This document shows, piece by piece, positions 15,419 through 64,000 of a DNA stretch of 64,000 nt. The stretch lies in NCBI GenBank assembly GCA_044892505.1, contig CM097882.1:445036001-445100000 (forward strand). The letters run 5' to 3'. The notes beneath the pieces are model-generated. The model ran no database searches. It saw only the letters and a list, made by a program, of their open reading frames with translations, and was not told the origin of the DNA. The number at the start of each line of letters is the position of its first letter. The stretch's first letter is position 1. This stretch comes from Schmidtea nova (Eukaryota). Position numbers and translations under genes: made by a program.

Positions 15419-21453
<6,035 letters not shown>

Positions 21454-21551
21454 GTAAGTTTTAATAATTTGATTCATTATAAAATGTCTCCCAAAATTTT
21501 GGTTACCTGTTCAAATCAAATTGAACCACTGACAGTGCTGACGACCCAAAA

Positions 21552-21613
<62 letters not shown>

Positions 21614-33799: not shown

Positions 33800-34563
33800 T
33801 GTTGGGTTATTATTCTGTAAGATCGGTTTACTGACCTGACTCCTCGTGCTCTTTAATTTTCGAAATCAATGAACCCAACACAGAACAATCTTTTTATTCG
33901 CGATCAACACAAATTACAGTTTTAGTTACACACACGTTTGATTAATTTACGCTTTCTTTCGATTCGGATTTGACTCTTTAATTCACAGGATGCTTTCTTA
34001 CTTTGTCTGTTTAGTCGTTTCAGGATCCTTTTCTATTCGCTTTCACAGTCTTTTTAATAATCTCTCTTTTGACTGTCCACTCGTCGGCCCGGTCCTCTGT
34101 TTTGCGCTGCCTTTTATAGTTCTCGCAAATAGCAATTAGGTTTTATCGATACCTAAAAGTTAATCAATTTCGGGTTTAATTGTCTTGCTGACAATTAATT
34201 TTGATTACCCTCGAATTGATTTTCCCTAATTGCCCCGACTTTGATCTCTCGGGTCTTTTGGCGCTCGGGCTTTCTTCATCGCTCGGGTTTCCCATTGCCT
34301 CGGGCTTCCCATTGTCTCGGGTTTCCCATTGAGCGATTAATTAATTTTAATTATTTTGTTTTTATTAAATAACTTTCTCTGGGGACCCCTTATTAAATTT
34401 CTATTATTATTTTTGGGTTCGTCTTTTGATTTGGTATTCAACCATACCCATTTCCCCCAGTGAATATTAATTTTACATTTTTGATAAATTTTAATTAATT
34501 TTTGCATTTTAATTTATTTCGATATTTCTTGTTACTTTTGTGATTTTTATACTAACCCCAACA
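33800..34563 (-). repeat. 3' LTR (764 bp)
   Basis: Near-identical to 49564-50327. I found only two differences (ttagtcg/ttaatcg and cccggtc/ccccgtc). Confidence 0.97.
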
Positions 34564-37111: not shown

Positions 37112-38578
37112 TTAGTCCAGTTTTAGTTCGATTTTTCCAACTTCACTTTTGTAACGGATAAATGTTTTTTCACGCTGGTAAATAATCCCATTTACCGTTA
37201 TGGTTTCACTTGCTTCTATTTGTGAATATTTTCTTTTTCTATTTTCAAGGTGGAGTATCGGTCCATTTTCATATGATATTGAAACTCTTGCGATAGACAA
37301 ACCGGTTATTACCTCAACGCTTTCTTCAATTGCCTCGAGATCATTTTCTGTTGCCAACTTCAATTCCGATTTCCCAATTTCCAAATCAACTTCCATATCC
37401 TCTGTCAAATCGATTTGCTCTGCCATTTTCTCAATTCCCACAGACAGGGCAATGGTTTTCGTAATTGCCGTGCTCGTCGTTGGCATTGTGTTTATGGTAT
37501 GAACTTTTCGATATTCCTCCAATGAATACTTCTTTGATGGGGTTGCTTTGGGAATTTGGATATCATCAATCCATGAATTTTCAATTTTTAAATATATTTT
37601 CCGAATGTTTTTGACATCTTCCAGGGCTGAATGGATGCGCACTTGCGTTTGTTCTCCAAGCCTTTGTTCAACCACAGTTTTCAGTTTGAAAAATTCACCT
37701 TTTCTCGATATCCCTTGCAACTGAAGTGCCTTTGCTGTGGACAAGTCTCGAATGCCATATAATTGATTTGTCCAAATTTTCAAATACTGGAGTTCTGCAT
37801 GCAAATCATGGCCAACCAATATTTTCCCAACAGTTAAATTCTGAATTTGTTTCATCTCCAAATATTGGTCGCATTGGTTCCTACTCGCAACCTCTGTTAT
37901 GCCATGTATTCTCGATTGGAAATGTCTCATTTTTCCTCTCGGCGTGAGGTATATATTTTTAATTATTTTCCCAAAATAATTCATAATGGCGATTGACAAT
38001 GGCACCATTTGTCCATTTTCTGATGTGCCGTATTCTGCGTCGATAAACAATATCCTGCTTCTTATTTCTTCTTGGTTTAATTCTTTTCGAATGAAGGATA
38101 ATCTTCTTTTCATCATATTTTCTGATATTGGTAGTAACGTTGGATCTGATGGCAATCCTGGCTCAGTTTGCGGAACTTCTTCTTTACTGTTTCTGAACCT
38201 TGTTTCCAGCGCGATTAGTGCGTCTTCATTTGCCGATCTAAGTTGCTTCTTTAATGCTTCCTCTCGCATTCTCCACGATGAGTCTTTGTGCATTTCCCAC
38301 CATATCCGCTGATTTTCGTCGATCATTTCCACTTTTCCTTTCAACACATGTAGTGTGACTTCTTCTTCATTCATTACTTTGCTATTTTCCATCAACTTTA
38401 CTCCTCCTTTTCTGCTTACTCTCAGGATTCTTGTTTTCATTCTTCTGTCATCGCTTCTTAAATAATTCGGTATTTTTGTATTTTCATTAATTTGGAATGG
38501 GCCTTGTCCCATATAGTTTCGATGCAGTTTGAGGTAGGCATCATAGATATTTGGTATCCACTGAATTTGTTCCATCAC
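37112..38578 (-). CDS. Element accessory ORF, 488 aa, with a REX4/ISG20-like DEDDh 3'-5' exonuclease domain (~37580-38060)
   Basis: ExoI ILFIDAEYG, then SIAIMNYFGKII, SRIHGIT, ExoII-like GKILVGHDLHAELQYL, IRDLS, and ExoIII IHSALEDVK (H-x4-D). Confidence 0.85.
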   Translation of the reverse strand: MMEQIQWIPNIYDAYLKLHRNYMGQGPFQINENTKIPNYLRSDDRRMKTRILRVSRKGGVKLMENSKVMNEEEVTLHVLKGKVEMIDENQRIWWEMHKDSSWRMREEALKKQLRSANEDALIALETRFRNSKEEVPQTEPGLPSDPTLLPISENMMKRRLSFIRKELNQEEIRSRILFIDAEYGTSENGQMVPLSIAIMNYFGKIIKNIYLTPRGKMRHFQSRIHGITEVASRNQCDQYLEMKQIQNLTVGKILVGHDLHAELQYLKIWTNQLYGIRDLSTAKALQLQGISRKGEFFKLKTVVEQRLGEQTQVRIHSALEDVKNIRKIYLKIENSWIDDIQIPKATPSKKYSLEEYRKVHTINTMPTTSTAITKTIALSVGIEKMAEQIDLTEDMEVDLEIGKSELKLATENDLEAIEESVEVITGLSIARVSISYENGPILHLENRKRKYSQIEASETITVNGIIYQREKTFIRYKSEVGKIELKLD

Positions 38579-38909: not shown

Positions 38910-41900
38910 CTATACAAACGTTTCCTCGTAGACAATCCACGGTCTTGGTGTCCTGGATTGACGTACTGCATGATTGTTCATTTTTTGAAAGCAAATCAGT
39001 AGTGAGAGAAGAATAACAATGAGAAATGGTGTTGCACTAATAACAATAGTCGATAAAATAATACATGTTTTTGCATTGTCGTTAGATGAAGATGATAAGT
39101 TTTTCAGAATTGTCACATCATAGATATGAGAAGGAATGATTGTCGTTTGAAGTTTTTTTGTCATATTTTTATATACATAATTGTTTTTTGAATCATCGCT
39201 ATCAGTAATGTTATATGAAACTCGAACAAGTTTGTTTTCGACAAGAGTGATCTGCCATTGTTTGGAATGAGAAGTAAATCGATAATATTTGATTTTCATC
39301 ATAACAAATTTTGAATTCGATATAGATCTTAATCTTTGAAAATTTAAAATTTGATGTGAAATGTTACTTGTTAATATTGCCTGAATTTTCCCGCAATAAT
39401 GAATTTCGACTTTTTTATTAACTTCCGCTTGTCGGGATGCGTTTAATTTCTGATTTTTATATTCAAAGATGACTCGATTTGTTTCATTCACCAATGTCAC
39501 GGATTGTTGAGTGGAATAGATCTTGAACCATTGATTATCAATTTCAGTACCATTTTTCCGTAATGCTTTTTCGTAATAATGAATGACGAGATTATATGTT
39601 TTATGCAATTCTAAATTAACATAATGTACATAAGGTTTCTTGAGATTTAACGTATCGATCGTGTACTTTTCGAAAATAATTTTCACTTGTTGGGATTCAT
39701 GGGGTTCCCAATATACATTGATACCTTTTATTATTGGTTCTATTGATACTTTGCTATTTAATTTTTTTGTCCAAATTTCAATTTCAAATTGATGTTGTAT
39801 TTTTGTATTATTTTCTTGATATTGTTGTTGGGTTATTAACCAGGGATATTTGTAATTCATTGTTAAATCATGCGCAACGTACATATTGTTGTTAAAATTC
39901 AACTTTATTGGTGGATCAAAATAATTTAATAAATTATTTACTTTTATTTCGTCTCTTGGTTCACAATGATAGACCCATACCATTTGGGTACATGTTGCAT
40001 ATATATCAAATTTTTCTAAAAGTGGAACTCTTTTTATTGCATACATTGGAAAGATTTTAGTCGAATTTGTTCCCAAAACATTAATCATCATTACTGTTGC
40101 AATCAGTAATACTTTATTGATATATCCCAATGATGCGGAGTTTTTTGGATCCCTCTGCTTGCTGATCGTTTCATCTTGCGACTTTTTCTTTTTTGATCTT
40201 AGCTGATATTTATTGTCATCCATAACTGGCACTTTTTTGCATCTATTAGCATGAATGATAATTGTTCCGGCCTTTTTATTATTTTGTGGCCGTAGTTTTA
40301 AATTAGTTTCAGTGGTATCGCATACCAGATATGGTCCTTTAAATGGTCTTTGTAGCTTTGGTGATAAACCCTTAGCTGGCTCTGGTTTGTTTACATAAAC
40401 CAAATCTCCTATTTCAATACCGTGCGCATGCGCTCGTTTGTCATAACACTCTTTATAACTTTCCTGTTGATGTTTTATTTTGAGTCCTGCTTGAACCCAT
40501 ACTGACTGTAGTCTTTCTTGCATGACAACTTTATAGTTCGATACATCCATATATTGCGATATAGGTGCTTGAAATTTTAAATCTATTGGCATATTATTCC
40601 GTCGTAGATACATAAGATAGAAAGGTGTTTCGCCAGTACTTTCATTTACTGAATTTCGATATGCGAATAAACACGGTTTAATGAATAGATCCCAATCTTT
40701 TTGCTTTCTGTTTACGTAAGATGATATCATATTGATTAATGTTCCGTTGAACCTTTCAACTAACCCATCTGTTTGCGGATGGTACGGTGATGTACTGAGT
40801 TTCAATATTCCGAATAATTCCGTTATTGAATTAAATAATTCGCTTTGAAAGTTTGTTCCTTGATCTGTAAGTAACTTCTTTGGTGCTCCATATCGAAAGA
40901 TAATGTTTTCTACAAATATTTTTGCAACTGTTTCTGCCTTTTGATTCTGCATTGCATAGGCTTCTGGCCATTTAGTTAGATAATCGCAAAATACAACGAT
41001 ATACTTATTGCCATTAATTGTTTCCGGTAGTGGACCAACAATGTCCATTGCTGTCATTTCCATTGGAGCTCCTGGTACAGGCATAGGCTTTAATGGTACT
41101 TTTATTTTCCTTCCTGTATTTCGTCTGGTCAGGCACACTCCACAAGATTGACACCATTGTCTAACGTCTTGTTCCATGGTGTCCCAATAATATTTCAATT
41201 TCAACCTTGACAATGTTTTTCTAGCTGATAAATGTCCTCCTAACGCCCCGTCATGGTATATCAACAGTAATGCTTTTCGATGTTTTGTTGGAACAATAAT
41301 TAACAAGTTTTCATTTTTAACACATTTTAACAGACCGTCATGGATAATATATTTATGTTTTTCTTTAACTATGTGTTTCCAGTCGCTCTCTTTTTTGATA
41401 GTGACTGCATTTTTCCGTATTTGTTTTAATTCATCATCATTTTCTTGATCATATTGTAATTCTTTCATATTGTTTGCGGTTTTAATTGCCATAAATATTG
41501 TGTCATTATAATTTGTTTCATTCTGATTATTATAATTTTCTTCAGGAATTCTCGATAAGGTATCCGCATTTGCATTTGATTTACCTGTGCGACATTTAAT
41601 TTCAAAATCATATTCCTGTAGAGCGATTGACCATCTTATCAGCTTACTGGCTGAATCTCTATGCTTCATGAGCCATTGTAGTGGATTATGATCTGTAAAT
41701 ACAATAAATTTCCTACCAATTAGATATTGTCTGAACGTGGTTATTCCATAAACTAGTGCTAACGTCTCCTTTTCAATGGTAGAATAATTCTTTTCATGAG
41801 GTTTCAATGTTCTACTAGCATAGGCAATAACGTGATCTTTCTCGCCGTTAACCTTTTGTCCGAGTACGGCGCCTAATGCAAAATTACTTGCGTCAGTCAT

Positions 41901-44396
41901 TAAGATGAAAGGTATTTTAAAATTTGGGCATCTCAAAATCGGCTTTTTAATTAGACTTTCTTTGAGCAAATCAAATGCTTCTTGCTGAGCTTTTGTCCAT
42001 TTAAATTGAGCTTGTTTCTTTAATAGCATATTCAAAGGCTGTGCCACGTTTGAAAAACTTTTAATAAATTTTCTATAATAACTAGCTAATCCAAGAAATT
42101 GTCGAACTTGATCTACATCTTTCGGAATTGGGTAATTTTTAATTTTCTCTACATTTTCTGGGTTTGGTTGTAATCCATTGCGTGAAATAATATGACCAAC
42201 ATAAACTACTTCTGATTTCCCCCATTCGCATTTCGAGGGTTTTATTTTCAAATTTGCTTCTAATAATCGTTTGAATACTGTTTCTACATCCTTTAGGTGT
42301 TCCTGAAAACTACTTGAAAATATTATTATATCATCAATATAAACTAATGCATGTGGAATGTCACGCAAGACAAAATTCATACCTCTTTGGAACGTGGCTG
42401 GCGCTCCTGTTAAGCCGAATGGTAATACATTGAATTCATACAAACCTTTGCCGTCTGAAAATGCTGTTTTTCTTCTATCTTCTTCTTTTACTTTAAACTG
42501 ATTATATCCTTTATTTAGATCAATTACTGTGAAGAATTTCACTTCTCCCATCTGATCAAACATTTCTTGTGGAACTGGAATTGGATACGTATCTTTTCTT
42601 GTAACCTGATTTAATTTTCGGTAGTCAACACAAAATCTTAAATCACCGTCTTTCTTTTTGACAACGACTATTGATGATGAGAATGGTGATGAACTATCTC
42701 GTATTATTTTAAATTCTTTCATTGCTTTGATTTGTCGATCACTTTCTTCTTGATGTATATATGGAATTCTATACGGTCTTAATTTGATAGGTGTTTCGTC
42801 GAGTAGTGGTATCTCGTGTTCTATCACTTGAGTAAGTCCCAAATCATATTCGTGCCTTGCAAACACTTTATCGTATCTTCTCAGTAACGCCATAAATTCT
42901 CGTTTTTGTACCTCAGTTAAATCGTTGCTAACAACTTGTGGTTTTTTATAGATTTTAATGTTCCTCGGTAACTTTTGATCCTTTTCTGTTCTAAACTTTG
43001 TTAACCTTCCCAACTTTGTTTTGGGTTTCATTTGAATGGCTTTTGCGCTATGATTTGCTATTCTTACTGGTACTGTTTGATCCTTGATTTTTACTATCTC
43101 ATCACACATTGGAATATCATATTTTTCTACTAGCTTCTGATTTGGCTCAAATATACATTCGTCATCTGATGCACCTGTTACATTTGCATAACATATTACT
43201 TCGCTTCTCGCTGGCAATTCCATTGCTTGATTTAGAAAGACTTCTTTGTTTGCAATTTTACTGGGCTGTTCCTTTATTAATTTCCCTGTAGTTAAATCAA
43301 GAGCAATTCCTTGTAATTGCCGCATAACATCCATCCCAACTAAACATATTACGGGACTTTTTCTTATAACTGTTACATTATGCGTTATTTCTTTATCACC
43401 GATAGTTAATTTAGCTTCTAATTTCCCAATTACATCTAAACAGTTCTGCGACATTGATTTGATCTTTTTACTCGTTGGTTTCATATTTACTCTTTCTTTA
43501 CGCGTTAACATTTTGTCTGACACTATTGTGTGACTTGAACCTGAATCCAACAAGGCTTCGACCGTTCTTTCATTAAACTGTATGTTTATCCGAGGTTGTT
43601 TGGCTTCTCTCCCCATGGTCATCAGCGCATAACTACATGGTAGACCAAGCATGTTTTTCCGTTCAATTTCCGCACTTGTTGGCTCGATATTTTCTAATTC
43701 ACATTTGATATGATTTACCGGTTTCATTTCCTTTAATCTTTCACTTGGATACATAGGTGCTGTTGGCACAAATGCTGGTGTATACCATTTTGTAAGAGTA
43801 TCAATTCCACTCAGCTTTGGTATTGGTTCAAGTAAAAATGTTGATTCTGGCTTTATTTCGCTTCCGACTCTTCCTTTTTGAAAATATTTCGGTTCATTTT
43901 TATTCTTATCATTACCGTCATTCTTGTTATTATTTCTGTCACCAAATTCACATAAGGATTCTTCGCTCTTTTGATCGCTTTTCAATTGTGCTTTCACACT
44001 TGCCATTTCTTTATATTGATGATGTGTAATAAAAAATTTTGCCAAAAATGGAATGCAACTAATGATAATTTTCCATGACCATCCTGATATTACGTATATT
44101 CTATGAGCAGATAGCACTTGAGATATGATTACCTTTAACGTTACTGCGACCACATAAATTCCAATTAAACCAGCACATGCTTGTCCTAAGAACATAAACT
44201 TTCCCCAAATCTTTTCCATCGTTTTATACGTGGCTCTTTTGAAATGATCAGGTGTTAATAAATATTCATAATTTATTTTATCCTCTCCATTTGGTAGTAT
44301 GGTGTCAATCATTTCTGAGATTATTCTCTCTTTCTTTGAAGGGAATAATAAATTTCTTTGGGCTTCTTCAATATCATCACTTGCATAAAACCCCAT
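38910..44396 (-). CDS. Env C-terminus/TM, aspartic protease, RT, RNase H, integrase, then a second type-I membrane protein (1828 aa frame)
   Basis: WGKFMFLGQACAGLIG TM; LLDSGSS; RFCVDYRKLN, LPFGLTGAP, VYIDDII; MTDASNFALGAVL; H..GGH..C..C, DIVGPLP, TDQG, GLVERFN, FKGPY; hydrophobic VLLIATVMMINVLG and CIILSTIVISATPFLIVILLSLLICF. Confidence 0.95.
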   Translation of the reverse strand: MGFYASDDIEEAQRNLLFPSKKERIISEMIDTILPNGEDKINYEYLLTPDHFKRATYKTMEKIWGKFMFLGQACAGLIGIYVVAVTLKVIISQVLSAHRIYVISGWSWKIIISCIPFLAKFFITHHQYKEMASVKAQLKSDQKSEESLCEFGDRNNNKNDGNDKNKNEPKYFQKGRVGSEIKPESTFLLEPIPKLSGIDTLTKWYTPAFVPTAPMYPSERLKEMKPVNHIKCELENIEPTSAEIERKNMLGLPCSYALMTMGREAKQPRINIQFNERTVEALLDSGSSHTIVSDKMLTRKERVNMKPTSKKIKSMSQNCLDVIGKLEAKLTIGDKEITHNVTVIRKSPVICLVGMDVMRQLQGIALDLTTGKLIKEQPSKIANKEVFLNQAMELPARSEVICYANVTGASDDECIFEPNQKLVEKYDIPMCDEIVKIKDQTVPVRIANHSAKAIQMKPKTKLGRLTKFRTEKDQKLPRNIKIYKKPQVVSNDLTEVQKREFMALLRRYDKVFARHEYDLGLTQVIEHEIPLLDETPIKLRPYRIPYIHQEESDRQIKAMKEFKIIRDSSSPFSSSIVVVKKKDGDLRFCVDYRKLNQVTRKDTYPIPVPQEMFDQMGEVKFFTVIDLNKGYNQFKVKEEDRRKTAFSDGKGLYEFNVLPFGLTGAPATFQRGMNFVLRDIPHALVYIDDIIIFSSSFQEHLKDVETVFKRLLEANLKIKPSKCEWGKSEVVYVGHIISRNGLQPNPENVEKIKNYPIPKDVDQVRQFLGLASYYRKFIKSFSNVAQPLNMLLKKQAQFKWTKAQQEAFDLLKESLIKKPILRCPNFKIPFILMTDASNFALGAVLGQKVNGEKDHVIAYASRTLKPHEKNYSTIEKETLALVYGITTFRQYLIGRKFIVFTDHNPLQWLMKHRDSASKLIRWSIALQEYDFEIKCRTGKSNANADTLSRIPEENYNNQNETNYNDTIFMAIKTANNMKELQYDQENDDELKQIRKNAVTIKKESDWKHIVKEKHKYIIHDGLLKCVKNENLLIIVPTKHRKALLLIYHDGALGGHLSARKTLSRLKLKYYWDTMEQDVRQWCQSCGVCLTRRNTGRKIKVPLKPMPVPGAPMEMTAMDIVGPLPETINGNKYIVVFCDYLTKWPEAYAMQNQKAETVAKIFVENIIFRYGAPKKLLTDQGTNFQSELFNSITELFGILKLSTSPYHPQTDGLVERFNGTLINMISSYVNRKQKDWDLFIKPCLFAYRNSVNESTGETPFYLMYLRRNNMPIDLKFQAPISQYMDVSNYKVVMQERLQSVWVQAGLKIKHQQESYKECYDKRAHAHGIEIGDLVYVNKPEPAKGLSPKLQRPFKGPYLVCDTTETNLKLRPQNNKKAGTIIIHANRCKKVPVMDDNKYQLRSKKKKSQDETISKQRDPKNSASLGYINKVLLIATVMMINVLGTNSTKIFPMYAIKRVPLLEKFDIYATCTQMVWVYHCEPRDEIKVNNLLNYFDPPIKLNFNNNMYVAHDLTMNYKYPWLITQQQYQENNTKIQHQFEIEIWTKKLNSKVSIEPIIKGINVYWEPHESQQVKIIFEKYTIDTLNLKKPYVHYVNLELHKTYNLVIHYYEKALRKNGTEIDNQWFKIYSTQQSVTLVNETNRVIFEYKNQKLNASRQAEVNKKVEIHYCGKIQAILTSNISHQILNFQRLRSISNSKFVMMKIKYYRFTSHSKQWQITLVENKLVRVSYNITDSDDSKNNYVYKNMTKKLQTTIIPSHIYDVTILKNLSSSSNDNAKTCIILSTIVISATPFLIVILLSLLICFQKMNNHAVRQSRTPRPWIVYEETFV

Positions 44397-45460
44397 TTGG
44401 GCAATTTTTTTAATGATGTAAAATTTACCAAGTATTCTAGAGTGATCAATTCTAATTTATCCGGCGTTTTTACTCCTCGGTAATCTGGTAACGCAATCCA
44501 ATGATCTGGTGCTAATCGGTATAACGGAGCAAGTAATCTATTGCATTGAAGAACCTTTGGTTTAACGTGCTCCTCCAATAGTATCCTAGTTATTGGTTCC
44601 ATAAACCGCATTTTTCCGTTCATGCTCACTGGTAATTCGTTTGTGCACTTTTCATATTTCATTATTTTTACTGTTACCTCTTTACATCTGTAGCTATACA
44701 AAGCTTCTCCAAATATCCTAGCAAATACTCCATTTTCTGATATCAACATAGGCGCAACTAAATTTGGGTTTGTAATTACCATTGCCATTCGATTTCGAAG
44801 TATCTCTTTATTTAATTTACAATCATTAAGGATCATTTCTCGATATATATTCTCCATGATGTTCTGGCTAAAATGAAACAAAAAATCAATTTTATTATTA
44901 AAATAGTGAGTTAATTTAATCTCTGTCGAATGTATTCTCGTTTTAGCTTCGTGCACCATCATTTTGGATACATAAACGCCTTTATAATTTGTTGCATATA
45001 CCATTTGACCGCATTTACTGGTGATATCCTTTTTTATGAAGCGCATGCTATCCGTTGGCATGGTCGACATCAAAACCGTTGCCGTTTTCTTCATCCATAT
45101 CGGCGTTGATCTAATTGTTATATTTGGGGCATAATTATTATTAAAATTGTCTGGTCGTTCTCGAAACTGTTCTCCACTCAATTCTTTGAAATTCATAGTT
45201 TTTAAGTGCGCTAAATTACATTCCTGGGTTTTGACATTATACACAAGAATGGACTCTCCTGTTTGGCAATTGGTTTGTTTCATGTTACAAAACGGATGTG
45301 TCTGTAATTTCCCCGTATCATCATCAAAAGCTCCTTCAAATTCTCTCAATTCCGTTAAATATTCCTCTATTACTACAGACTGTTTGATTATCTTCCCATC
45401 TACTTTGTATGGTTCTCCTTCACAATCTCCATCTTGTTTCATTACTCCTTTTACGACCAC
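44321..45460 (-). CDS. Middle part of a chuvirus-like glycoprotein ectodomain; in frame with the upstream ORF after a single TAA
   Basis: Cys-rich pattern GDCEGEPY, FCNMKQTNC, CGQMVYATNY, LNDCKLNKEILRN.L, GEALYSYRCKEV, CTNELPV, RFMEPITRIL, CNRLLAP.Y..DHW. Confidence 0.8.
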   Translation of the reverse strand: MVVKGVMKQDGDCEGEPYKVDGKIIKQSVVIEEYLTELREFEGAFDDDTGKLQTHPFCNMKQTNCQTGESILVYNVKTQECNLAHLKTMNFKELSGEQFRERPDNFNNNYAPNITIRSTPIWMKKTATVLMSTMPTDSMRFIKKDITSKCGQMVYATNYKGVYVSKMMVHEAKTRIHSTEIKLTHYFNNKIDFLFHFSQNIMENIYREMILNDCKLNKEILRNRMAMVITNPNLVAPMLISENGVFARIFGEALYSYRCKEVTVKIMKYEKCTNELPVSMNGKMRFMEPITRILLEEHVKPKVLQCNRLLAPLYRLAPDHWIALPDYRGVKTPDKLELITLEYLVNFTSLKKLPKWGFMQVMILKKPKEIYYSLQRKRE

Positions 45461-45463
45461 TGT

Positions 45464-48400
45464 TTATCTAATTCTATGATTTCGCTTTGCTTTTAATTTA
45501 ATTTCCGAATTTATTTTTAATTCTCCTGTTTGAAAAGCAGCGAGGCAATTTTCCGGCATTACTTCCACTGGCCGTGGGATTGTATACATTTTTATCATTG
45601 AAGTATGGCTCCACTTGCCACAGTAAAATATAAAGGAAGTGCGCTTAACTATACATTCTCTTACTGTTGTTCGTCGTAAGTCAGATTCTTGATATACATG
45701 ATATTTCACATCATTTTCTATCTTTAATTTTCTTGGATATGCGTCTGAACACTCTGCCATATCTACAACTGAATAAATTTTCCCCATTTCTGTTTTTGAA
45801 CAGTCATACGCTGTCATACTCGTTACCTGTGTGATTCCAGCACATAAAATAATTATCATAAAGATTGCCCAAGGAAACATTATTGTCTTCCTCTTTTCTG
45901 GACTAACTCTGACATTTAGCGATTTTTGAGGTAAACTTTCTTTATTACTTTCGTTTTCATTTATTATAAACATTTTCATCAACTTGTCCCAACCTCCAAT
46001 CTTTTTAACCCAGCTCATTAAGTATTCGTTTATATTTCGAGCAGCAGTATCTATTAAATTTTCTAACTCATCTGATTTCATGATCTTATGAGCACCAATT
46101 TCCAAAATTACATAAGCTAAGCTCATTAATGTTACTTCTGTAGTAATTCCATTTCTAGTTAATTTCTCGATTACATCTTTGTCACAAAATCTTTCATTTT
46201 TACCAAACCTTTGCATGATGCTAGGGAGTCTGTTTCTCACTTCATTTACTATGCCTCCCAATTCATATTTTTCATCTACCTCCATTTCACACATTGGGTA
46301 TACTGCTTTAGTCAAGCCTTTTAATAATGCTTTGGTTTTATCTACTTCCTGTTCCAATCGCACAAGACCTTTCTTTATTTCATATAAAGTTCTCGGCTTC
46401 TTAGTATTAATTTCATTATTCATTTCGCCTTTAAGCTCCGCCAATTCTTGCACTTTTGTTAATTTATACTCATTTTTGTTATTCTTTTTGGTTTCCTCAT
46501 CATCCTTTATTACTTCGTTTATTTCTTTGATTTCTTTAACCTCATTTTCATCATCATTTTCTCTGTCTGTATTTGATCCATCAGATTTGTCTATTAATTC
46601 AAATTTCTGTTCCTTAATCACTGTTACACAATTTATCAAATATCCATTTCCACTATCGGAACGTAAATATCCATTTTCATCTAACTCTTGTGGCACAAAT
46701 CCACAATCAAATAAATATTCATCATCATCTAATTCTTCTCCTTTAAACATAAATATAATAATTCCATCTTTTCCTATTCTTTCAGCAGCTCTTTTTCTTA
46801 ATTTCCGAACTTTTGTGCACCAATGCTCTACTATATATTCAGTTTTACCATAATCTTCGTAATCTAATGCTATTGTAAACGGATTCAATTCTATTGTAGT
46901 TTTTCTAAGTTTTTTGCCTAATTGTCGTACTAAATTTCTTAAATTTTCTCTATATTTTGATTTTTCATACATGTATGGCCTTATTGTATCTATAATATCT
47001 AATTTACTATCTCTCTCAATTTCAATTTCTTCTATCAATCTTAATTTTCTAATAATTTCATTTGCATCCCCTTTACACAAAATATCCTTTAATTCCCTAC
47101 AAATTTTCTGTGATTCATCTTTTATTATTTCATTGTTTCTATTCATAAATACTATCTGTACTCTGTTTTTATTCTCAGGTGTAATACCACAATCTATTAA
47201 TATTTCCTCGTCATTTAAACATCTATTTTTAAATTTTACTTCCTTTATCCATTTTCCACTATTTTCCTCTAATCTCTTTTTAAATTCCTTTACGCACTCT
47301 CCTATTTCACAACGAATACACATCACATCATTATTACTTTCATCAACAACATCAATAACAATAAAATCTAACCATGTTTTCTCTCTGAACAATTTTCCAA
47401 ATATTTTCATTATTTTCTCAGTTTCAGTTTTATCTTTTGAATTCTCATTATTATAATCAGCACACATTTCAATTACAGTTTTTAATTTTTGTATACTCAT
47501 CGGCATTTGACTCAATTTCTTTAGCATTGTCATTATTTTTGACGTCTCTTTTACTTTTGCCTCCATTAAAACTTTTGTTCTCGACAAAATCATTTTTATT
47601 TTTTCTGTTTCTAATTCATCATTTACTACTTCCTTCATTATATCTGTCTCTGACCCTTCTGATTGCGATTCATACATCATATGATTATCAGCTTCTTCGT
47701 CTGATTCAAATTTACACATTAATTGATCCAATCGTTTACCCATTTGCTTTATCTCTTTTTCAATTCTTTCGTTAGCATCATCGGGTTGTACAAAAGCCAC
47801 ATTATCAAATTTTGATTTATCATTTTGAAATCTGATTTTCTTTAATATAGGTCTTTGAAATTTTCCATTATTCTTTGGGCATGATCTAGCCATGTGTCCA
47901 TATCCTCTGCATGAGTGACATTGAATTTGTCCTTGGAGATTCACTCTATCTCTCTGTGGTGATGGTGATGTTGACGGAGATCTCGATCTTGCAAAGCAAT
48001 TTCGTGAAGAATGGCCTTTCCTTCCACAATTATAACACTGCATATTATCACTAGCTCTTTGATCATTGTTGCCCCTTCTCTTGAAGGTTTTCTCGACATT
48101 GTCTTTCAACCAATCTGGCCACATCTTTCTTGGACTCCGTTGCGAATTATTTTTAAACCAACATTGACTATTACTGTGCCCTTTTCGTTGGCAATTATCA
48201 CACTGAACAGGACTTGGGCTTCTTCGAGCGCTGTTTTTAAACCAACATTGATTTACTTGATGTCCCAATCTTTTACAATAACTACATTGAATTGGCCTTT
48301 CTCTCTCTTCATTTGGGCTGTTTGACGACTTTCTTGGCTCGAATTTCACTCTGAACTTTGGTGATGGACTAGTTGATTTTTGCAAAAGAGTCTCTCTAAC

Positions 48401-49066
48401 TGGAGTTACCGATTCATCTCTCGTTTCATTTACAATTGCAAAGGATTCTGTTGTCTGTTGTGTGGTTTTGAGATTCAATTCAATCTTCATGGCCTTTTTA
48501 ATCAATTCATCGAAATTGTTGAAATCTACATAACACAGTGCTTTTTTGATCTCTCTTTTTACTCCTGACAGAAATTGATCTTGTAGTAATTCTTTCACTT
48601 GTTTCGTCACATCCGGTTGTTCTGGTTTCGCTTCAAAGGCTTTTTCTGCAAGAGTTGTTAAATGATAAGCGAACTCACTTACCGATTCATTTGACTTTTG
48701 TACTCGGTTGTAAAATTTTTGGCGCATTATTCTTTTGATATCGCCACCGATTAACTTGGCTGCCAATGCATCTTTTAGCTTTGTCCAATCATTTGCGATA
48801 AGTCTTTTGTCGATCTGTTGCCAAGCTTCTCGTGCTGCACCTTTCAAATATAATGGCAACCTTTGTACCATAATTGATTGGCTCCATCCGTATGCTGTCG
48901 CGTACATATAGTAATCTGCCATGAAATCAACAAAATCAATTGGGTCTCCTCCGTATTGCTCTACTGGCAATTTCTGACAACTTGCAAAATCACTACCATT
49001 GTTTGTGGGAGTAGTAGACATGGGTATTTGATCATTATTATTTGAATTACTAGCCATATTTTCCAC
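45464..49066 (-). CDS. Gag (capsid-like region plus 4 CCHC knuckles), 2 ubiquitin-like domains, Bcl-2-like domain, TM/signal peptide and Env N-terminus (1200 aa)
   Basis: YGGDP..F...Y...A..YGW..LPLYLKGAAREAW (retrotransposon gag); four Cx2Cx4Hx4C; FKNRCLNDEEILIDCGI and FKGEELDDDEYLFDCGF; LMSWVKKIGGWDKLMKMF; PWAIFMIIILCAGITQVTS-MTAYDC. Confidence 0.92.
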   Translation of the reverse strand: MENMASNSNNNDQIPMSTTPTNNGSDFASCQKLPVEQYGGDPIDFVDFMADYYMYATAYGWSQSIMVQRLPLYLKGAAREAWQQIDKRLIANDWTKLKDALAAKLIGGDIKRIMRQKFYNRVQKSNESVSEFAYHLTTLAEKAFEAKPEQPDVTKQVKELLQDQFLSGVKREIKKALCYVDFNNFDELIKKAMKIELNLKTTQQTTESFAIVNETRDESVTPVRETLLQKSTSPSPKFRVKFEPRKSSNSPNEERERPIQCSYCKRLGHQVNQCWFKNSARRSPSPVQCDNCQRKGHSNSQCWFKNNSQRSPRKMWPDWLKDNVEKTFKRRGNNDQRASDNMQCYNCGRKGHSSRNCFARSRSPSTSPSPQRDRVNLQGQIQCHSCRGYGHMARSCPKNNGKFQRPILKKIRFQNDKSKFDNVAFVQPDDANERIEKEIKQMGKRLDQLMCKFESDEEADNHMMYESQSEGSETDIMKEVVNDELETEKIKMILSRTKVLMEAKVKETSKIMTMLKKLSQMPMSIQKLKTVIEMCADYNNENSKDKTETEKIMKIFGKLFREKTWLDFIVIDVVDESNNDVMCIRCEIGECVKEFKKRLEENSGKWIKEVKFKNRCLNDEEILIDCGITPENKNRVQIVFMNRNNEIIKDESQKICRELKDILCKGDANEIIRKLRLIEEIEIERDSKLDIIDTIRPYMYEKSKYRENLRNLVRQLGKKLRKTTIELNPFTIALDYEDYGKTEYIVEHWCTKVRKLRKRAAERIGKDGIIIFMFKGEELDDDEYLFDCGFVPQELDENGYLRSDSGNGYLINCVTVIKEQKFELIDKSDGSNTDRENDDENEVKEIKEINEVIKDDEETKKNNKNEYKLTKVQELAELKGEMNNEINTKKPRTLYEIKKGLVRLEQEVDKTKALLKGLTKAVYPMCEMEVDEKYELGGIVNEVRNRLPSIMQRFGKNERFCDKDVIEKLTRNGITTEVTLMSLAYVILEIGAHKIMKSDELENLIDTAARNINEYLMSWVKKIGGWDKLMKMFIINENESNKESLPQKSLNVRVSPEKRKTIMFPWAIFMIIILCAGITQVTSMTAYDCSKTEMGKIYSVVDMAECSDAYPRKLKIENDVKYHVYQESDLRRTTVRECIVKRTSFIFYCGKWSHTSMIKMYTIPRPVEVMPENCLAAFQTGELKINSEIKLKAKRNHRIR

Positions 49067-49542
49067 TTGTTTCTTATTTCGAAGATTATAAGATTTCTTT
49101 TGTACAACTTTTTCTCGTCTAAATTTTAAAATATTACAATTTTTAATTTTACCTTTTGTTTTAATTTTGACTTGATTTTTGGCAATTGGATTTTATCGAT
49201 TCTTTCTTTTCTGTTCAAGCTTTTTACTCTTTTATTTCAACTGATACAATTTATTTTCACTCTTTTTTTTTTTCAACAATTAATCTCGTTTTGTTTAGTT
49301 TTCTAACTTTAATTTCTCTTTTTACAATTATTCGATTTTACTTTTCAACAATTTTCTCTCTGATTTTATTCAATTATGTCGATTAATATCGTTTTCTTTA
49401 TTTATCAAATTCAATTTTCTATAGCAATTTATCTCTCCTTTTCTGTGATTCACTCCTTCACCGACCTTTAGATCACGTCGGTTATTATCGTAACAATTTT
49501 TCAACTATTCAATATTTTCACTATGCTCTCACCGACCCTCGA

Positions 49543-49560
49543 ATCACGTCGGGCTCACCA
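49543..49560 (-). promoter_or_regulatory. Primer-binding site, tRNA-Trp type
   Basis: The minus strand reads TGGTGAGCCCGACGTGAT, 3 nt inside the 5' LTR. It differs by one base from the avian retrovirus tRNA-Trp PBS TGGTGACCCCGACGTGAT. Confidence 0.85.
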
Positions 49561-49563
49561 AAA

Positions 49564-50327
49564 TGTTGGGTTATTATTCTGTAAGATCGGTTTACTGACC
49601 TGACTCCTCGTGCTCTTTAATTTTCGAAATCAATGAACCCAACACAGAACAATCTTTTTATTCGCGATCAACACAAATTACAGTTTTAGTTACACACACG
49701 TTTGATTAATTTACGCTTTCTTTCGATTCGGATTTGACTCTTTAATTCACAGGATGCTTTCTTACTTTGTCTGTTTAATCGTTTCAGGATCCTTTTCTAT
49801 TCGCTTTCACAGTCTTTTTAATAATCTCTCTTTTGACTGTCCACTCGTCGGCCCCGTCCTCTGTTTTGCGCTGCCTTTTATAGTTCTCGCAAATAGCAAT
49901 TAGGTTTTATCGATACCTAAAAGTTAATCAATTTCGGGTTTAATTGTCTTGCTGACAATTAATTTTGATTACCCTCGAATTGATTTTCCCTAATTGCCCC
50001 GACTTTGATCTCTCGGGTCTTTTGGCGCTCGGGCTTTCTTCATCGCTCGGGTTTCCCATTGCCTCGGGCTTCCCATTGTCTCGGGTTTCCCATTGAGCGA
50101 TTAATTAATTTTAATTATTTTGTTTTTATTAAATAACTTTCTCTGGGGACCCCTTATTAAATTTCTATTATTATTTTTGGGTTCGTCTTTTGATTTGGTA
50201 TTCAACCATACCCATTTCCCCCAGTGAATATTAATTTTACATTTTTGATAAATTTTAATTAATTTTTGCATTTTAATTTATTTCGATATTTCTTGTTACT
50301 TTTGTGATTTTTATACTAACCCCAACA
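49564..50327 (-). repeat. 5' LTR (764 bp) with TATA (TATAAAAG, 49875-49882), AATAAA (49657-49662) and ~18-bp U3 repeats (~50010-50095)
   Basis: Matches 33800-34563; motifs read on the minus strand. Confidence 0.97.
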
Positions 50328-51073: not shown

Positions 51074-51948
51074 TGCTGGGGTTGTTATAATCACAGAAAA
51101 TAAATTTAAAATTGCACAAATCAATAAAAATACAAAAAATTGGAAAAATAATAATTAATGTTCAAACATTAATTAAAAATTTACAAAAAATTAAAATAAA
51201 GTTTGAGCGGGGGAAACTGGTATGGGAGGATGCCAAACGACGAGACGAATTCGAATATGGGCATATAAAAATAAAAAGAAGCGCACAGAAGGAAATAATT
51301 AGAAAATACAAATTAATTAAAATAATTAAGTATTCTATAGGAAGCCCGAGCTAGTGGGAAACCCGAGCTAATGGGAGACCCGAGCTAATGGGAAACCCGA
51401 GCTAGTAGGAGATCCGAGCGATGTGGGAAACCCGGGGCATCAGCGAGGTCATTAAACTATCAAATTAAATTGAATGCCCCGGGGAGAGCCGGAAAAACCA
51501 TTAACGGCAAAGATCCAGTTACGACCATGCAGGGCTGATCAGATCCAATTACAACAGAGTGGACTCGATAGTATCCAATTACACCGACAGAATGGCAACA
51601 CAAAGATGGTATAAAAACGGAGAGCAAAGTGCCAAAATTGCCAGTTGGTCGAAGATAAAATTTAGGCGTAAAGTGAATCTCAAACCGTTAGAAGATATTT
51701 GGAGGAGACGTTGAAAGGAAATCAAAAGTAGAATTTAAACTTAATCTTTTACGCACCAGAGAGGGAGATATCCCATTGGGTGTTCTACCCTCACGCGAAG
51801 AGTGCAGAGCCTGAGTAACTTTTTGTGATAAAAAGAGTTGTGATCATTTGAAAAATAAAGAAAGTTATTGTGTTGGGTTTTGTTTATTTTGTAATTGAAA
51901 GAGAACACAGGAGTCAGAAACTACCGACTCAACACTAATAACCCAACA
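51074..51948 (+). mobile_element. Solo LTR (875 bp) of a related subfamily, in the opposite orientation
   Basis: TG(C)TGGGG...AATAACCCAACA termini homologous to the main LTR, ATGG TSD (51070-51073, 51949-51952), 18-bp gggaaacccgagc repeats, and TATAAAA at ~51610. Confidence 0.88.
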
Positions 51949-53889: not shown

Positions 53890-56015
53890 TATTAGCCACA
53901 GCACTACGGGTATTAATTGAATCCATAAGACAAATTATAATAACACGTTTATTAATTAAAAATCCCAATCTTATTAAAACAAATTATAACGATAATTTGT
54001 TTGAGGAGTTTTTAAAAATAATAATTAATGTATAAGTAAGGATTTCAACATACAATCAAACACGCGCAGCATCATACCAATATATTTTAATTCAAATTAC
54101 AAAAACGCCTCACATTCCCCCTTTTTTAAAATTCTTTAACCACTCAATATTTCTCGTGACGACACTTCCATTTTCCAATTTTATTTCATAACTTCGATCA
54201 TAAATCTTTTTAGTAATTACACCTGAACCCATATATCTATTATCACCTTTATTTTGAACATTTACTTTGATCAACACGCAATCTCCAATTTGAAATTCAC
54301 GATTTATCGTCTGATTGATTTTTTCTTCTTCCAAAATTTCTGAGAACCATTCACTAAAGATCTTTTTCCCAAACACCATTTCAGCTGGAGTCTTTCTAAT
54401 AGTTTTTTGAAAAGTTGAATTCATCATAAACTGTACTTCGGGAAGAACATCTACCCATGATTTATGTCTTTTATCTTTGAGTGTTATCTGTATTGCATCT
54501 CTAATTGTACGGAATTGTCTCTCAATCTGTCCATTTGCTGAATGATGATATGGACTTGAATAATTAATTTCAATATTGTGGAATTCTGCAAAATCTTTCA
54601 TTAGCTTTGATTCAAATAATTTACCTATGTCACAGTTTATTATCCTTGGTGCTCCAAACTTCATTATCCACTCTTCTTTCAGTAATCTTACCACTGTATT
54701 TTCATCTTGCGATTTTGCTGCATGTAAAGAAATAAATTTACTATGATGATCTATATTCCCAAGAATATATCTTTCTCCTCTCATTGCAAGTTGTAATGGA
54801 CCACAAAAATCTACATAGATTTTTTCAAATTATTTCGAATCACTTTTGCAAATTATTTCTTCTTTTGTTTTAGTTGTATCAACCTTTCTTTTCTGGCAGT
54901 TTTCACAGGCTTGTACAACATTACGAATAGATTGCTCCAAATCTTTCATATGAAAATTATTTGATACATATATTTTTACTTTTTAAGCACCCGCGTGACA
55001 GAGCTTTTTATGATATTCTATGATGAATTTGAACTTGTTTTCTTCTGGAATCCAAATTTTATTATTATTGGTCATAATCGCTCCGTTGACATATTTAAAA
55101 AATGTTTTATCTGGCATCATACTAATATTTTCTTTTATATTTTCAATTTCTTTTGAGTTCTTTTGCCATTTATTTTCAATATTTTCAGTCATCAGTGTCA
55201 ACAATCTTGTTTTTAATTTACCCATTTTAGGATTTTCATGAATCATTTGACATTGAACACATGTCTCACATTCTTTTCTAGATAGAGCGTCGGCATTATT
55301 GTGGTTATCACTTTTTCTGTATTGAATCTCCATGTCCAGACCACTAAGATGGTTAATCCAAGTTTGAAATTGCGGAGTAATAGCTTTCTTTGTCTTCATC
55401 ATAAATGTAATGGCTTTGTGATCCGTTCTCAAAATAAACTTTTTACCATATAAATAATGCTTAAAATGAACAGTAAAATAAAATATAGATAATAATTCCT
55501 TTCTTGTTATACAATAGCCTAATTCGTGTTTATTCATAGCTCGGGATCCATATGCGATTACTCTTTCTTTATTTCCATCTTTTTGAGATAGAACAGCACC
55601 GATGCAGTCAAAACTTGCATCTGTATCCAAAATGAATGGTTTAGAAAAATCTGGAAACTTCAATAATGGTGTAGACGTTAATTTTAGTTTTAAATTTTGA
55701 AATGAAGTTTCACACTCATCAGTCCACATAAGCTTCTTTTGTTTACTTCCACATAACGCTTCTAATACTTTGGAATTTTTGGTGTAATTCTCTATAAATC
55801 TGCGATAGTAATTTGCCAGGCCTAAAAACCCTCTCAAGCTTTTACGCATTTAGGTCTTTCAAAATTTTTAATAGTTTCAATCTTGCTTTCATCCGTACGT
55901 ATTCCATTTTCACTAATGATATGACCCAAAAATTTTACTTCTTTCCTTTTGAATTGACATTTTGCTGGACTTATTTTAAGATTTGCTAATTTAATCATTT
56001 GAAAAACCTTTTCAA
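53890..56015 (-). mobile_element. 5'-truncated Ty3/gypsy element (RT end, RNase H, integrase, PPT, 3' LTR start), inactivated
   Basis: KCQFKRKEVKFLGHII, LRGFLGLANYYR, LDTDASFDCIGAVL, RTDHKA, VDFCGPL, ANGQIER. PPT aaaaaaggggggaa at 54115-54128 is followed by TGTGAGG at 54114. Frameshift at ~55850 and stops at 54983 and ~54830. The far LTR end is not resolved. Confidence 0.88.
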
Positions 56016-57519: not shown

Positions 57520-59532
57520 ATGAAATCAAGTAAATTAAACAATCAGAATTTTTATAATAATTCTAATGTTTCACATCAATCTGGTGAAACTGGAAATAAC
57601 TTTGAAAAAGTAAAATTATTTGATAAAGAAAATTCTAATTTGAATATAAACTTTAAAAATCAAAATAAATCAAATTCAAAATCTCGTTCTGGTTCCACTT
57701 ATAGAAATAGTTACTATAATAAAGATAGTTATTCTAAATTTAATGATAACAAACTTGAAATGAAATTTCCTAGATTATTAACCAAAAGGGAAAAAAATTC
57801 ATTAACACAATTATTCCCAAAATATCTTTCTCTTTTAAAGTTAAAGGAATCAGTCAGAAAATCTGATTTAATTAATAATGATTTGTTAAATATAAAAAAA
57901 GTGGATAATCCATTGGAGATTGCAGGTTTTGAGAGTTTCTTTTATAGAAACTATAACATATGTGTGTTTTTAAATTTTGAACCTCTTAAAGTAAAGGCAG
58001 TTAATAATAAAGCACAAATACCCACCGTGAAAACATTTTTGATTGGATCGAACATCTTGATGGTTAATAAAAAGCAGACTAAATTCATTCCTGCCCCATC
58101 AATTATTAAACGATTCTTATGTTCCTTTTCGTCAAAACTTGCAAGGACAGTCTCTATTAAAAATCCAAAGGCCAAGGAAATACAAATAAATAATATTCTT
58201 TTTGAAATGAGACAACGAAAAGAACTCCCTGATTACCTTATAAACTCAGAAATAAAATATGTTGCGGGTAACTTCATGATGTTGGATCTTCTTAGCGGTT
58301 CTGAATCGGAAGATACCAGTCCATACCAAGCTGCTACTGAACTGTCCCGGTCACAATTAGTTAACCTATTTAAGTCACACCCTGAACTTGAGGAGCTATG
58401 TTTTATTGAGAACACATATGCTAATCCCCAAAATATAAATAAATTAATTATGAAATTAAAACTAGAAAATAAATTTCCAGAGCAGATCTCATTTGTAGAG
58501 GGTAAATTTATTATTAGAAATTCAACAGCAAATGGAGTCAAAGTGCACGCAGTTGGTACATCTGATATAATGTTCAACTTAGGTTTGCTGAACTTTGTTG
58601 AGATGTCAAAAGATGACAGTGTGTTTAGTTCTCTTCTTGATGAACAGCCCTCATCTCAAAAGCTGGTTGATATCATTTTTTATTTAAATTATTTAAAATT
58701 AAAAGATTCCCTAAAATATAACTCAGAACCCAGCTTTGATGTATACGTACTGAACTATCTCAGAAATTGCTTCTTAATGCATTCGATCACGACTATTGAA
58801 GAGTCTTATAATTTTGACGTTGACACTATTTACATCTGGGGTTCAGAGATGGTCAGTAAGCTTAACAGTTCTTCATACTATTTCACTAGTTGTCAAGAAA
58901 GACTTTTGAAACTAAAACAAGTGAATCTCTCTGAGGAGATTGATAAAATTCATGACATCATCTCCCCCAAAACCATTTTAGAAATAAACAATTTCCTGGC
59001 AGTTGTCGATAATTCTCTACCTAAAAAGACAGACCAGATGAAGGCCTTAGTAAACATAAGCAATAAAATCAATGAATTTCAATCCGAGTTGAGTAATAGT
59101 GATGTTGTTAAAGCAAAACGACTCTTGTTCTTTGTAATTAGAGACAAGAAAAACTTTCTTAAAGCCAACAGAGTTAACTTCCGACTTCCTCGACATTGTA
59201 GAAAGATTTGTACTTCGAGTATGAGTGTCTACATTACAAAGCTTCTTGAGGTTCTGCTTCCGTTCACAACAACAAGTAATTTTCAACCTGATACCCTAAA
59301 TCTAGAGACTATCAACGAATCCATCGATAACATAGAAGACGAAAATCCTTCTCCTATAGTTGATGAAGATGACATAGATAATTTAAGAAAGAATCAAGTA
59401 AAGAAGCGTAAACTAGCATGTGATATCGATGAAATTCAGTCATCTGCAATAGAGAGCAAAAGTAATGAGGAACCTGAGCTTCCTTTGAAATCTTTTAAAT
59501 ATGGTAAGGGAACGGGAACAGGAAATAAATGA
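57520..59532 (+). CDS. N-terminal part of the non-LTR polyprotein, unknown domain(s)
   Basis: 670-aa ORF in the same frame as 59539, separated by one TGA (GNK*RCVP). Confidence 0.65.
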   Translation: MKSSKLNNQNFYNNSNVSHQSGETGNNFEKVKLFDKENSNLNINFKNQNKSNSKSRSGSTYRNSYYNKDSYSKFNDNKLEMKFPRLLTKREKNSLTQLFPKYLSLLKLKESVRKSDLINNDLLNIKKVDNPLEIAGFESFFYRNYNICVFLNFEPLKVKAVNNKAQIPTVKTFLIGSNILMVNKKQTKFIPAPSIIKRFLCSFSSKLARTVSIKNPKAKEIQINNILFEMRQRKELPDYLINSEIKYVAGNFMMLDLLSGSESEDTSPYQAATELSRSQLVNLFKSHPELEELCFIENTYANPQNINKLIMKLKLENKFPEQISFVEGKFIIRNSTANGVKVHAVGTSDIMFNLGLLNFVEMSKDDSVFSSLLDEQPSSQKLVDIIFYLNYLKLKDSLKYNSEPSFDVYVLNYLRNCFLMHSITTIEESYNFDVDTIYIWGSEMVSKLNSSSYYFTSCQERLLKLKQVNLSEEIDKIHDIISPKTILEINNFLAVVDNSLPKKTDQMKALVNISNKINEFQSELSNSDVVKAKRLLFFVIRDKKNFLKANRVNFRLPRHCRKICTSSMSVYITKLLEVLLPFTTTSNFQPDTLNLETINESIDNIEDENPSPIVDEDDIDNLRKNQVKKRKLACDIDEIQSSAIESKSNEEPELPLKSFKYGKGTGTGNK

Positions 59533-59538
59533 AGGTGC

Positions 59539-60285
59539 GTGCCTGCATCCGTCTCAACATCTGCTCTAATCTCTAAAGAGACTGATGCAGACAGCACAAA
59601 TGATGACAATTCTAAACTTTCAACAACACTGCGTGACCCTAAAATATGGTTTACTGATGATGATATAGATAATTACCTTGAACGTCACATCAGTAACCCA
59701 ACATTTGCACCGATAAAATGCTTTCAAATTGAAATCCTACTTGCAAATCTGTCTGAAGACATTTTCCCAATTCCGGAAAGAGTTTTCTCATCACAAATAA
59801 TATTATGCCCCTTAAACATTAACCAGGCTCACTGGATCTTGTTTGTCTACTGTAAGGCATCACTAACGTCTTACTTTATAGATCCAATTTTTGAAAATCG
59901 TCATTCAATGGGCAATAAAGCAACAGCACTTAAAACCAACATCGCTTTTAATCGATTATTTAACTTGAAAGCTGCGGTATTTTTCCATCCACATAAGAAC
60001 TTTATCTATCAGGACAATGACTATGACTGTGGTCCTTACATCTGTGCATATGCTATGATGATAAGTGGAGAATGGCAGAGATTTCCTGATAACTTTATTG
60101 AAACTATCCGCATAAATGCCCACCAATTTAAACTTACCTTGCAAAACATAGGCCCAAAAACATCGGGGGGTGGTGCACTGAAAATAAAAAGCTACAAACA
60201 ATATAAAAATGCAAGAAAGCAAATTACAATTACCGATAAAGAGCAGATATTTTTTCTCAAGAGAAATTCTGTGTGTCTTCCTTAA
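59539..60285 (+). CDS. Ulp1/SENP-like (C48) cysteine protease domain
   Basis: WFTDDDIDNYL, ILCPLNINQAHWILFVY, YFIDP, QDNDYDCGPYIC: His/Asp/Gln/Cys catalytic pattern. Confidence 0.85.
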   Translation: MPASVSTSALISKETDADSTNDDNSKLSTTLRDPKIWFTDDDIDNYLERHISNPTFAPIKCFQIEILLANLSEDIFPIPERVFSSQIILCPLNINQAHWILFVYCKASLTSYFIDPIFENRHSMGNKATALKTNIAFNRLFNLKAAVFFHPHKNFIYQDNDYDCGPYICAYAMMISGEWQRFPDNFIETIRINAHQFKLTLQNIGPKTSGGGALKIKSYKQYKNARKQITITDKEQIFFLKRNSVCLP

Positions 60286-63200: not shown

Positions 63201-64000
63201 ACTCGATTTCAAAGAGTCAGAACTTCAATTGCTTACTTTGAAAAAATCCATAAAATAAATATTACCTTCACTGTCACTAATCGCGAACCCTCACTATATA
63301 TAACAACAGAAGCGCGAGGTACATGCATTTTGACTTCTGATTTACATCAGACGACATCTAAAGTCTTGCATATTGCACTCTGTAACTCTTATATGTCGAA
63401 ATGGGAGAAGAGCTGCGTCTCAAGCATATTTGCTTCAGCAATCAAACTTTCACCGATTGTTAACAAGGCCATCTATCGTAGTGAATTGTCTGAGTTTGCT
63501 TGGAATTTTATTCATCGAGCTCGCACTAACACTCTCTCTATTCTCGCGAAGCCTTACAATCGAGATGAAAAAAGACTTTGTCGTCGGTGTCATCTTGCAG
63601 ATGAGACGATGTCACACGCTATTCAATCGTGTAAAGTCCATCTTACTCTTGGTTCTGAGCGACACGACGACTGTCTAAAGATTATTGCTACTCATCTTCA
63701 GAGAATTCCGAATTTGATTGTTGTTATTGATCATGCCTGTTCACTTGTTCCGAACTCTAAAGAACGAGTTGACTTGATGATAACAGACTTGTCAAAAAAG
63801 AAAATCTTTCTAATTGACTTGAAATGTCCGACAGACTCTATTGCTGGTTTTGAACAAGTTGACTTACTAAACTTGGCGAAATATGATTCGTTGAAAAACG
63901 AGATACAAGCTGTCAAGCCAGACTTTAGAGTTGAACTTGATACTTGCATTATTGGTGCTTTGGGATCTTTTCCTTCGAAAACTTCCGATATTCTTTTGAA
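60252..64000 (+). CDS. Open frame of ~1250 aa absent from the ORF track (no stop before the window end): degenerate Ulp1-like repeats, RT, CCHC and RLE endonuclease
   Basis: Read manually: SPGIDG, SWRPIALLSVIYK, QKG, GCAEH, WLDIKDAFGSVPH, GVKQGCPLS, LAYADDI (62451), YQYLGV, CRRC..ETMSHAIQSC, RHD, RVDL..IDLKCP, KY..L, IGALG. Confidence 0.92.

Follow-up and report, generated by a model that had tools for sequence, protein, structure and literature searches.

We analyzed a 64,000-nucleotide window of the Schmidtea nova genome (GenBank assembly GCA_044892505.1, contig CM097882.1, positions 445,036,001 to 445,100,000) and found a high-copy, Burro-like Ty3/gypsy element of 16.5 kb on the minus strand, whose Gag-Env-Pol polyprotein contains a module between the nucleocapsid (NC) and a Bcl-2-like domain. 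From comparisons of the encoded proteins, we conclude that this module is a tandemly duplicated unit, each copy being a predicted four-helix bundle followed by a ubiquitin-like domain (Ubl). A preliminary description of this DNA had placed two Ubls and a possible BAG domain at 46690..47370; the two Ubls do lie inside the module, but the first bundle falls outside that span. [quoted passage not shown]

45464..49057, minus strand: 5' polyprotein part, 1197 aa, with Gag capsid (CA), four CCHC-type knuckles, the module, the Bcl-2-like domain, a hydrophobic segment and the start of Env
47378..47626, minus strand: helical bundle 1, aa 478-560, tentatively similar to TFIIS-N and the LEDGF integrase-binding domain (IBD)
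47141..47377, minus strand: Ubl 1, aa 561-639, fold predicted from unit 2; it lacks di-Gly and has Lys at the Ile44-equivalent position
46898..47140, minus strand: helical bundle 2, aa 640-720, four predicted helices, a paralog of bundle 1 and the segment previously described as BAG
46622..46897, minus strand: Ubl 2, aa 721-812, predicted beta-grasp in which the loop ahead of the last strand is modeled with low confidence; it lacks di-Gly and has Met at the Ile44-equivalent position
46403..46621, minus strand: acidic, fast-evolving linker, aa 813-885, 22 D/E and 13 K/R, 25-32% identity between families
45953..46402, minus strand: Bcl-2-like domain, aa 886-1035
45830..45886, minus strand: hydrophobic segment by hydropathy, aa 1058-1076; the PF24664 match starts at aa 1065

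By blastp, the first unit (aa 478-639) aligns with the second (aa 640-812) over 134 aa, across both helices and Ubl (E 2e-6, 25% identity). The AlphaFold model of bundle 2 contains four helices at residues 2-23, 26-38, 43-56 and 64-80 (22, 13, 14 and 17 residues; predicted local distance difference test, pLDDT, 83-92), and by net charge the bundles are basic and the Ubls acidic. Genome searches with the Bcl-2 and fusion-protein families identified four further element families, B-E (the window element being family A), with polyproteins of 3059-3082 aa (B), 2992 aa (C), 3401 aa (D) and 3393 aa (E). Reverse transcriptase (RT) identity is 94-96% among A, D and E and 49-54% between those families and B and C. 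The helix-then-Ubl unit is present twice in families A, D and E, and a profile of the unit located two full copies upstream of env in 10 of 10 fetched D and E loci; in families B and C, a single helical segment precedes a single Ubl, after which come an acidic linker and Bcl-2. A tree of the eight unit types grouped all first units together (100) and B with C (100), with the second units apart (99), and we therefore infer that the duplication predates the divergence of A, D and E; being unrooted, the tree does not polarise gain or loss. By eye, several helix-plus-Ubl-like segments are also present in a giant ankyrin-bearing element of the same genome. The unit nearest its Bcl-2 domain took the top three of 186 windows when compared with the bundle profile (P 6e-4 to 1e-3), and its two other units matched weakly (P 0.04 and 0.26). 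This Burro-type element also encodes Env, Pol and ankyrins, with a 476-aa MATH frame in many copies.

Outside these families, protein database searches returned no match to a 266-aa piece of the module (candidates of 146-466 aa), to region 430-1060 (2096-5000 aa) or to a four-row profile (304-2000 aa), which is weak evidence, and phmmer searches of single sequences against the PDB gave nothing useful. No unit match was present in three 40-kb regions around a high-copy BIR family. This family is a cluster of plus-strand open reading frames (ORFs) that includes a BIR protein of 399-405 aa with a RING-like motif at its end, and no Gag-Pol frame adjoins it in those regions.

Both Ubl domains are, in our assessment, real: Ubl 2 as judged from its structural model, and Ubl 1 as judged from homology to unit 2 and a low-confidence model. 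In this respect the preliminary description was correct. The AlphaFold model of Ubl 2 is a beta-grasp fold (pLDDT 77) that Foldseek aligned to SUMO, ISG15 and NEDD8 (TM ~0.8), and a Ubl profile matched ISG15 (E 3e-4). A single-sequence AlphaFold prediction of aa 555-820 was of low confidence (pLDDT 39.6). All 50 of 50 rows in a wide fold search were Ubl-fold matches, with AtBAG1 present via its Ubl only; these lists spanned the Ubl half, with neither BAG nor TND listed for the bundle. The ESM Atlas gave a top score of 0.79, including two Ubl clusters, which we treat as leads only, and no usable match for bundle 1. As had been noted, neither Ubl ends in di-Gly, and this ending is absent from every Ubl of families A-E. 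The Ile44-equivalent residue is M, K, K, R, R, R, Y and Y in the 8 of 8 unit types (one row aligned by eye; this single position of the patch was mapped). Proteasome-binding Ubls of the Rad23/BAG1 type use a hydrophobic Ile44 patch. Judged by sequence, the element Ubls are not conjugatable modifiers, lacking di-Gly, and are probably not proteasome-binding Ubls of this type, lacking the Ile44 residue. They share the common beta-grasp with integral ubiquitin-fold domains (ISG15 domains, UHRF1 Ubl, Rad60 SLD, SUMO and NEDD8; root-mean-square deviation 1.5-2 A over ~72 residues), but they are 13-24% identical to all of these, no single donor can be named, and they are not conjugatable.

To the C-terminal side of the units, a six-row Bcl-2 profile matched Bcl-xL in the BH1/BH2 region (E 3e-7; single sequence, E 0.04), in agreement with the earlier placement of the module between NC and a Bcl-2-like domain. 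Bcl-2 proteins are tail-anchored. As aa 1058-1076 form the sole hydrophobic segment between Bcl-2 and Env, this segment likely doubles as a Bcl-2 tail anchor and an Env signal sequence. A candidate caspase site in the linker was rejected, as by eye it is not kept in families D and E.

Conservation across families A, D and E is 42-55% identity for the bundles, 48-73% for the Ubls, 25-32% for the linker and 85-91% for Gag CA, with synonymous sites near saturation. Nonsynonymous divergence (pN) in the bundles and Ubls of these families is 0.15-0.32, against synonymous divergence (pS) of 0.33-0.82. Within family A (24-29 of 29 copies), pN/pS is 0.28-0.35 for the two bundles, Ubl 2 and Bcl-2, and 0.77 for the linker. 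These values indicate that the module is under purifying selection, looser than that on Gag or Env.

We propose that the unit probably acts toward host proteins as a docking or decoy module, with no catalytic role, and not as a BAG1-type Hsp70 cofactor. The element protease would cut behind NC, near aa 422, where a word at aa 419-424 is conserved in A, D and E and similar words occur in B and C as candidate protease sites, and signal peptidase would cut ahead of Env. The predicted product would be a membrane-anchored Bcl-2-like protein carrying two units in the cytosol. Its Ubls would be neither conjugated nor clipped by ubiquitin proteases and would probably bypass the Ile44-patch receptors of the proteasome, and the basic bundle, possibly derived from a TND, may bind acidic host motifs. 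Several points weigh against this proposal. Every relative of the unit comes from one genome and none from the protein database searches; constraint on Ubl 1 is weaker than on the rest (A versus D, pN 0.28 and pS 0.33; within-family pN/pS 0.62, from 8 variants); the putative cleavage sites are placed by position and a short conserved word; Ubl matches filled every fold-search list; and the module might act in particle assembly or in folding instead of binding host proteins.

A related alternative is that the units are structural spacers or folding and solubility helpers of the Gag-Env precursor, akin to a built-in SUMO tag, with no host partner. The low surface conservation of the units, their freely changing copy number (one, two or several) and the loss of both the Ile44 residue and di-Gly fit such a role, but the bundle stays with its Ubl through duplications and under constraint, and the neighboring cargo is of host-interaction type (Bcl-2 here, MATH and ankyrin in relatives), leading us to consider it unlikely. 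Far less probable still is the earlier suggestion that the element captured a BAG1-like Hsp70 co-chaperone, made up of Ubl 1 and the middle helices, which works together with the Bcl-2 domain. The resemblance is that of a Ubl adjoining a small helical bundle near a Bcl-2 protein: family A has the local order Ubl-helices-(Ubl)-Bcl-2, and in the window copy an Asp, an Arg and a Gln are spaced roughly as in BAG. In the available part of PMC8755836, however, BAG is a three-helix domain contacting Hsp70 through Glu212, Asp222, Arg237 and Gln245. The bundle 2 model has four helices, and the candidate Asp, Arg and Gln each occur in 1 of 8 unit types (by eye, in a mapping of these three contacts). No BAG chain appeared among the 32 and 29 PDB rows returned to E 10 by the bundle profiles, and a profile-profile comparison with host BAG, itself a weak test, gave P 0.68. 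A genome search with PF02179, in which HMMER filters limit weak matches, found two places, a host WW+BAG (BAG3-like) gene and its decayed copy, neither of them an element copy, and no host Ubl+BAG gene was found exon by exon. The middle helices are instead homologous to those ahead of Ubl 1, making the basic unit helix-then-Ubl, the reverse of BAG1; in the single unit of B and C, the Ubl is followed by the acidic linker and not by a helical bundle. We reject a BAG1 origin because of the four helices, the Hsp70 contacts that are not kept, the lack of BAG matches and the reversed unit order; the absence of the Ile44 residue is a further difference. A PYRIN domain (2 of 12 members, E 0.047) was also rejected, the bundle having four helices and not six.

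The remaining alternative concerns the bundle itself. TNDs are right-handed bundles in which two hydrophobic pockets and a basic patch bind TIM peptides, and HIV borrows one member of this family, LEDGF, as a scaffold. If the bundle is a captured TND of the LEDGF IBD family, then after its release it could bind motifs of host elongation factors, or the integrase of the element itself, and so steer integration or transcription, a scenario to which we assign a low probability. The idea came before its test, which used a profile of 14 host sequences taken from PF08711 and PF11467 matches after near-duplicates were dropped from 30 rows. Among 155 polyprotein windows without overlap, unit-1 and single bundles took 5 of the top 6 places (up to 15.6 bits; for family C the window spans the last helix only). 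By profile-profile comparison they led all 79 windows, scoring 25.2 (P 4e-4) against 17.7 for the best unrelated one, and the bundle alignment scored 23.3 against TND (P 9e-4; reversed, 14.1), above the maximum of 100 column shuffles (13.05), although such shuffles destroy the helical period and are a lenient null. Among PDB rows, LEDGF IBD accounted for 4 of 32 (E 0.45-3.1) and the MED26 TND for 2 of 29 (E 0.35-0.38); none of these matches is significant, and IcmQ, LYAR and designed bundles rank above them. Like the TNDs of TFIIS, MED26, IWS1 and LEDGF/HRP2, the bundle is a net basic domain of ~80 residues; its weak profile match spans the last three or four helices, and it has an aromatic residue at the place of the conserved Trp in unit 1 and in families B and C. 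It differs in being fused to a Ubl inside a retroelement polyprotein and in its helix number, as the TND is described in the available part of PMC9987994 as a five-helix bundle and the bundle 2 model has four helices, with a five-residue gap across alpha3-alpha4. Also unfavorable are an HHalign probability of 24% (1-5% with smaller profiles), the omission of bundle 2 from the top TND lists, the lack of any element copy in PF08711 and PF11467 genome searches, the conflicting registers in which the giant element's unit aligns to bundle and to TND, and a membrane anchor that, short of a cut in the linker, sits poorly with a role in the nucleus. Modeling bundle 1 in complex with an acidic, IWS1-like host peptide scored 0.01, without alignments or folded controls, and is no evidence either way. 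The FxGF motif is absent from the six polyprotein pieces scanned, and a PF14632 (SPT6) genome search gave no match. Overall, sequence profiles make TND ancestry of the bundle a serious prospect that falls somewhat short of even. The fuller proposal, in which a retroelement lineage captured a TFIIS-N/LEDGF-type domain, joined it to a Ubl and multiplied it into one to several copies as its own LEDGF-like scaffold, appears doubtful. A literature search found no report of an element-encoded LEDGF counterpart, with the primary Burro papers and supplements outside its reach. At C1 216.19-216.25 Mb, C1 28.8 Mb and C2 284 Mb, the same genome has TFIIS-N-domain ORFs in a tandem array of ~1.2-kb period, as well as clustered IWS1-like paralogs that lack introns and carry acidic helix motifs.

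The element that carries the duplicated unit has these further parts.

49564..50327, minus strand: 5' long terminal repeat (LTR), 764 bp, TG...CA ends
49539..49560, minus strand: TGG-initiated primer-binding site, which we take to be of the tRNA-Trp type
44321..45463, minus strand: separate ORF with the middle piece of a Monjiviricetes-type fusion glycoprotein (PF24664, E 6e-35)
38910..44456, minus strand: end of Env, then protease, RT, RNase H and integrase, followed by a C-terminal segment with a hydrophobic stretch on either side; the frame differs from that of the preceding piece
37112..38575, minus strand: downstream ORF with a weak DEDDh-type exonuclease match (PF00929, E 0.027)
33800..34563, minus strand: 3' LTR, with a purine-rich tract just before it

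The LTRs align with 765 matches, 2 mismatches and 1 gap, and ATAT (4 bp) stands on each outer flank; the near-identical pair, its TG...CA ends and the flanking ATAT mark the insertion as young. In this copy the frame is split into three ORFs by a stop at 45464-45466, inside env, and a frame change near 44.3-44.5 kb. A genome search with a 266-aa query, in which 144 of 2176 candidates were scored, found that all 144 span the query at 95-100% identity, 133 of them without an internal stop and 19 with a single frame of 3427 or 3442 aa. In the element's ORFs, Pfam matches are to Gag, zinc knuckles, a fusion glycoprotein of Monjiviricetes type, and protease, RT, RNase H and integrase, with a weak one to Bcl-2. 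The ~400 aa after integrase (38910-40100, minus strand), between two hydrophobic segments and with no Pfam match, may be a second in-frame membrane protein, and ORFs resembling the one at 37112..38575 also follow pol in families D and E. An inverted copy of an LTR-internal array of 17-bp repeats lies at 51337-51421, 1 kb beyond the 5' LTR. Elsewhere in the window (GC content ~30%) are exons of a host KDM5-like gene (16455-21621, plus strand; ARID/PHD, JmjC, C-helical), other mobile pieces at 8105-8848, 54110-55849 and 60240-63998 (DDE_1 transposase, gypsy RNase H/integrase fragments and a long LINE-like RT frame), and a 670-aa ORF with no Pfam match (57520-59532). A high-copy element of BEL/Pao type, as judged by eye (C3 157.79 Mb), carries in frame before Gag a ubiquitin tail fragment, a near-canonical ubiquitin ending in di-Gly and what is presumably an Hsp70-like fragment; long frames of this type make up most of 150 PF00240 rows.

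The available text on planarian Burro elements describes how a single frame joins Gag and its CCHC knuckles to a Ubi2/SUMO-like domain before BCL-2, and to a mononegavirus-like Env between gag and pol (PMC6431247), and the Ubl-Bcl-2 neighborhood is thus already published. The window element shares with Burro/GYPSM1 the in-frame order Gag-Ubl-Bcl-2-Env-protease-RT-RNase H-integrase and the position of the mononegavirus-type fusion glycoprotein, but is 16.5 kb long with 764-bp LTRs and a 3427/3442-aa frame, compared with >30 kb and 4873-5140 aa for Burro in the same text. Its ORFs have no Pfam match to MATH, BIR, ankyrin or dUTPase, and it has two Ubls, each behind a helical bundle, a feature unmentioned in the available part of PMC6431247. 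Its RT is 51% identical to that of the giant element of the same genome. By these sequence comparisons, it is a smaller relative of Burro and not Burro1-4 itself.

These results remove a false lead, as there is no captured BAG1, and indicate that the real building block of the cargo region is a unit of helix bundle and Ubl, of which the high-copy gypsy families with an envelope in one genome have one, two or several copies. Should the bundle prove to derive from a TND, the element would encode its own counterpart of LEDGF. Cargo related to cell death has a precedent among planarian gypsy elements in B-IAP of Burro1, an anti-apoptotic RING+BIR protein with tested function that, in the available part of PMC13465017, is reported to protect planarian stem cells; the window element differs in having no BIR match and a cargo role predicted from sequence. 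Because one Burro cargo is reported to act in this way, the unit, compact, conserved, beside Bcl-2 and easily expressed, offers a testable handle on element-host interaction.
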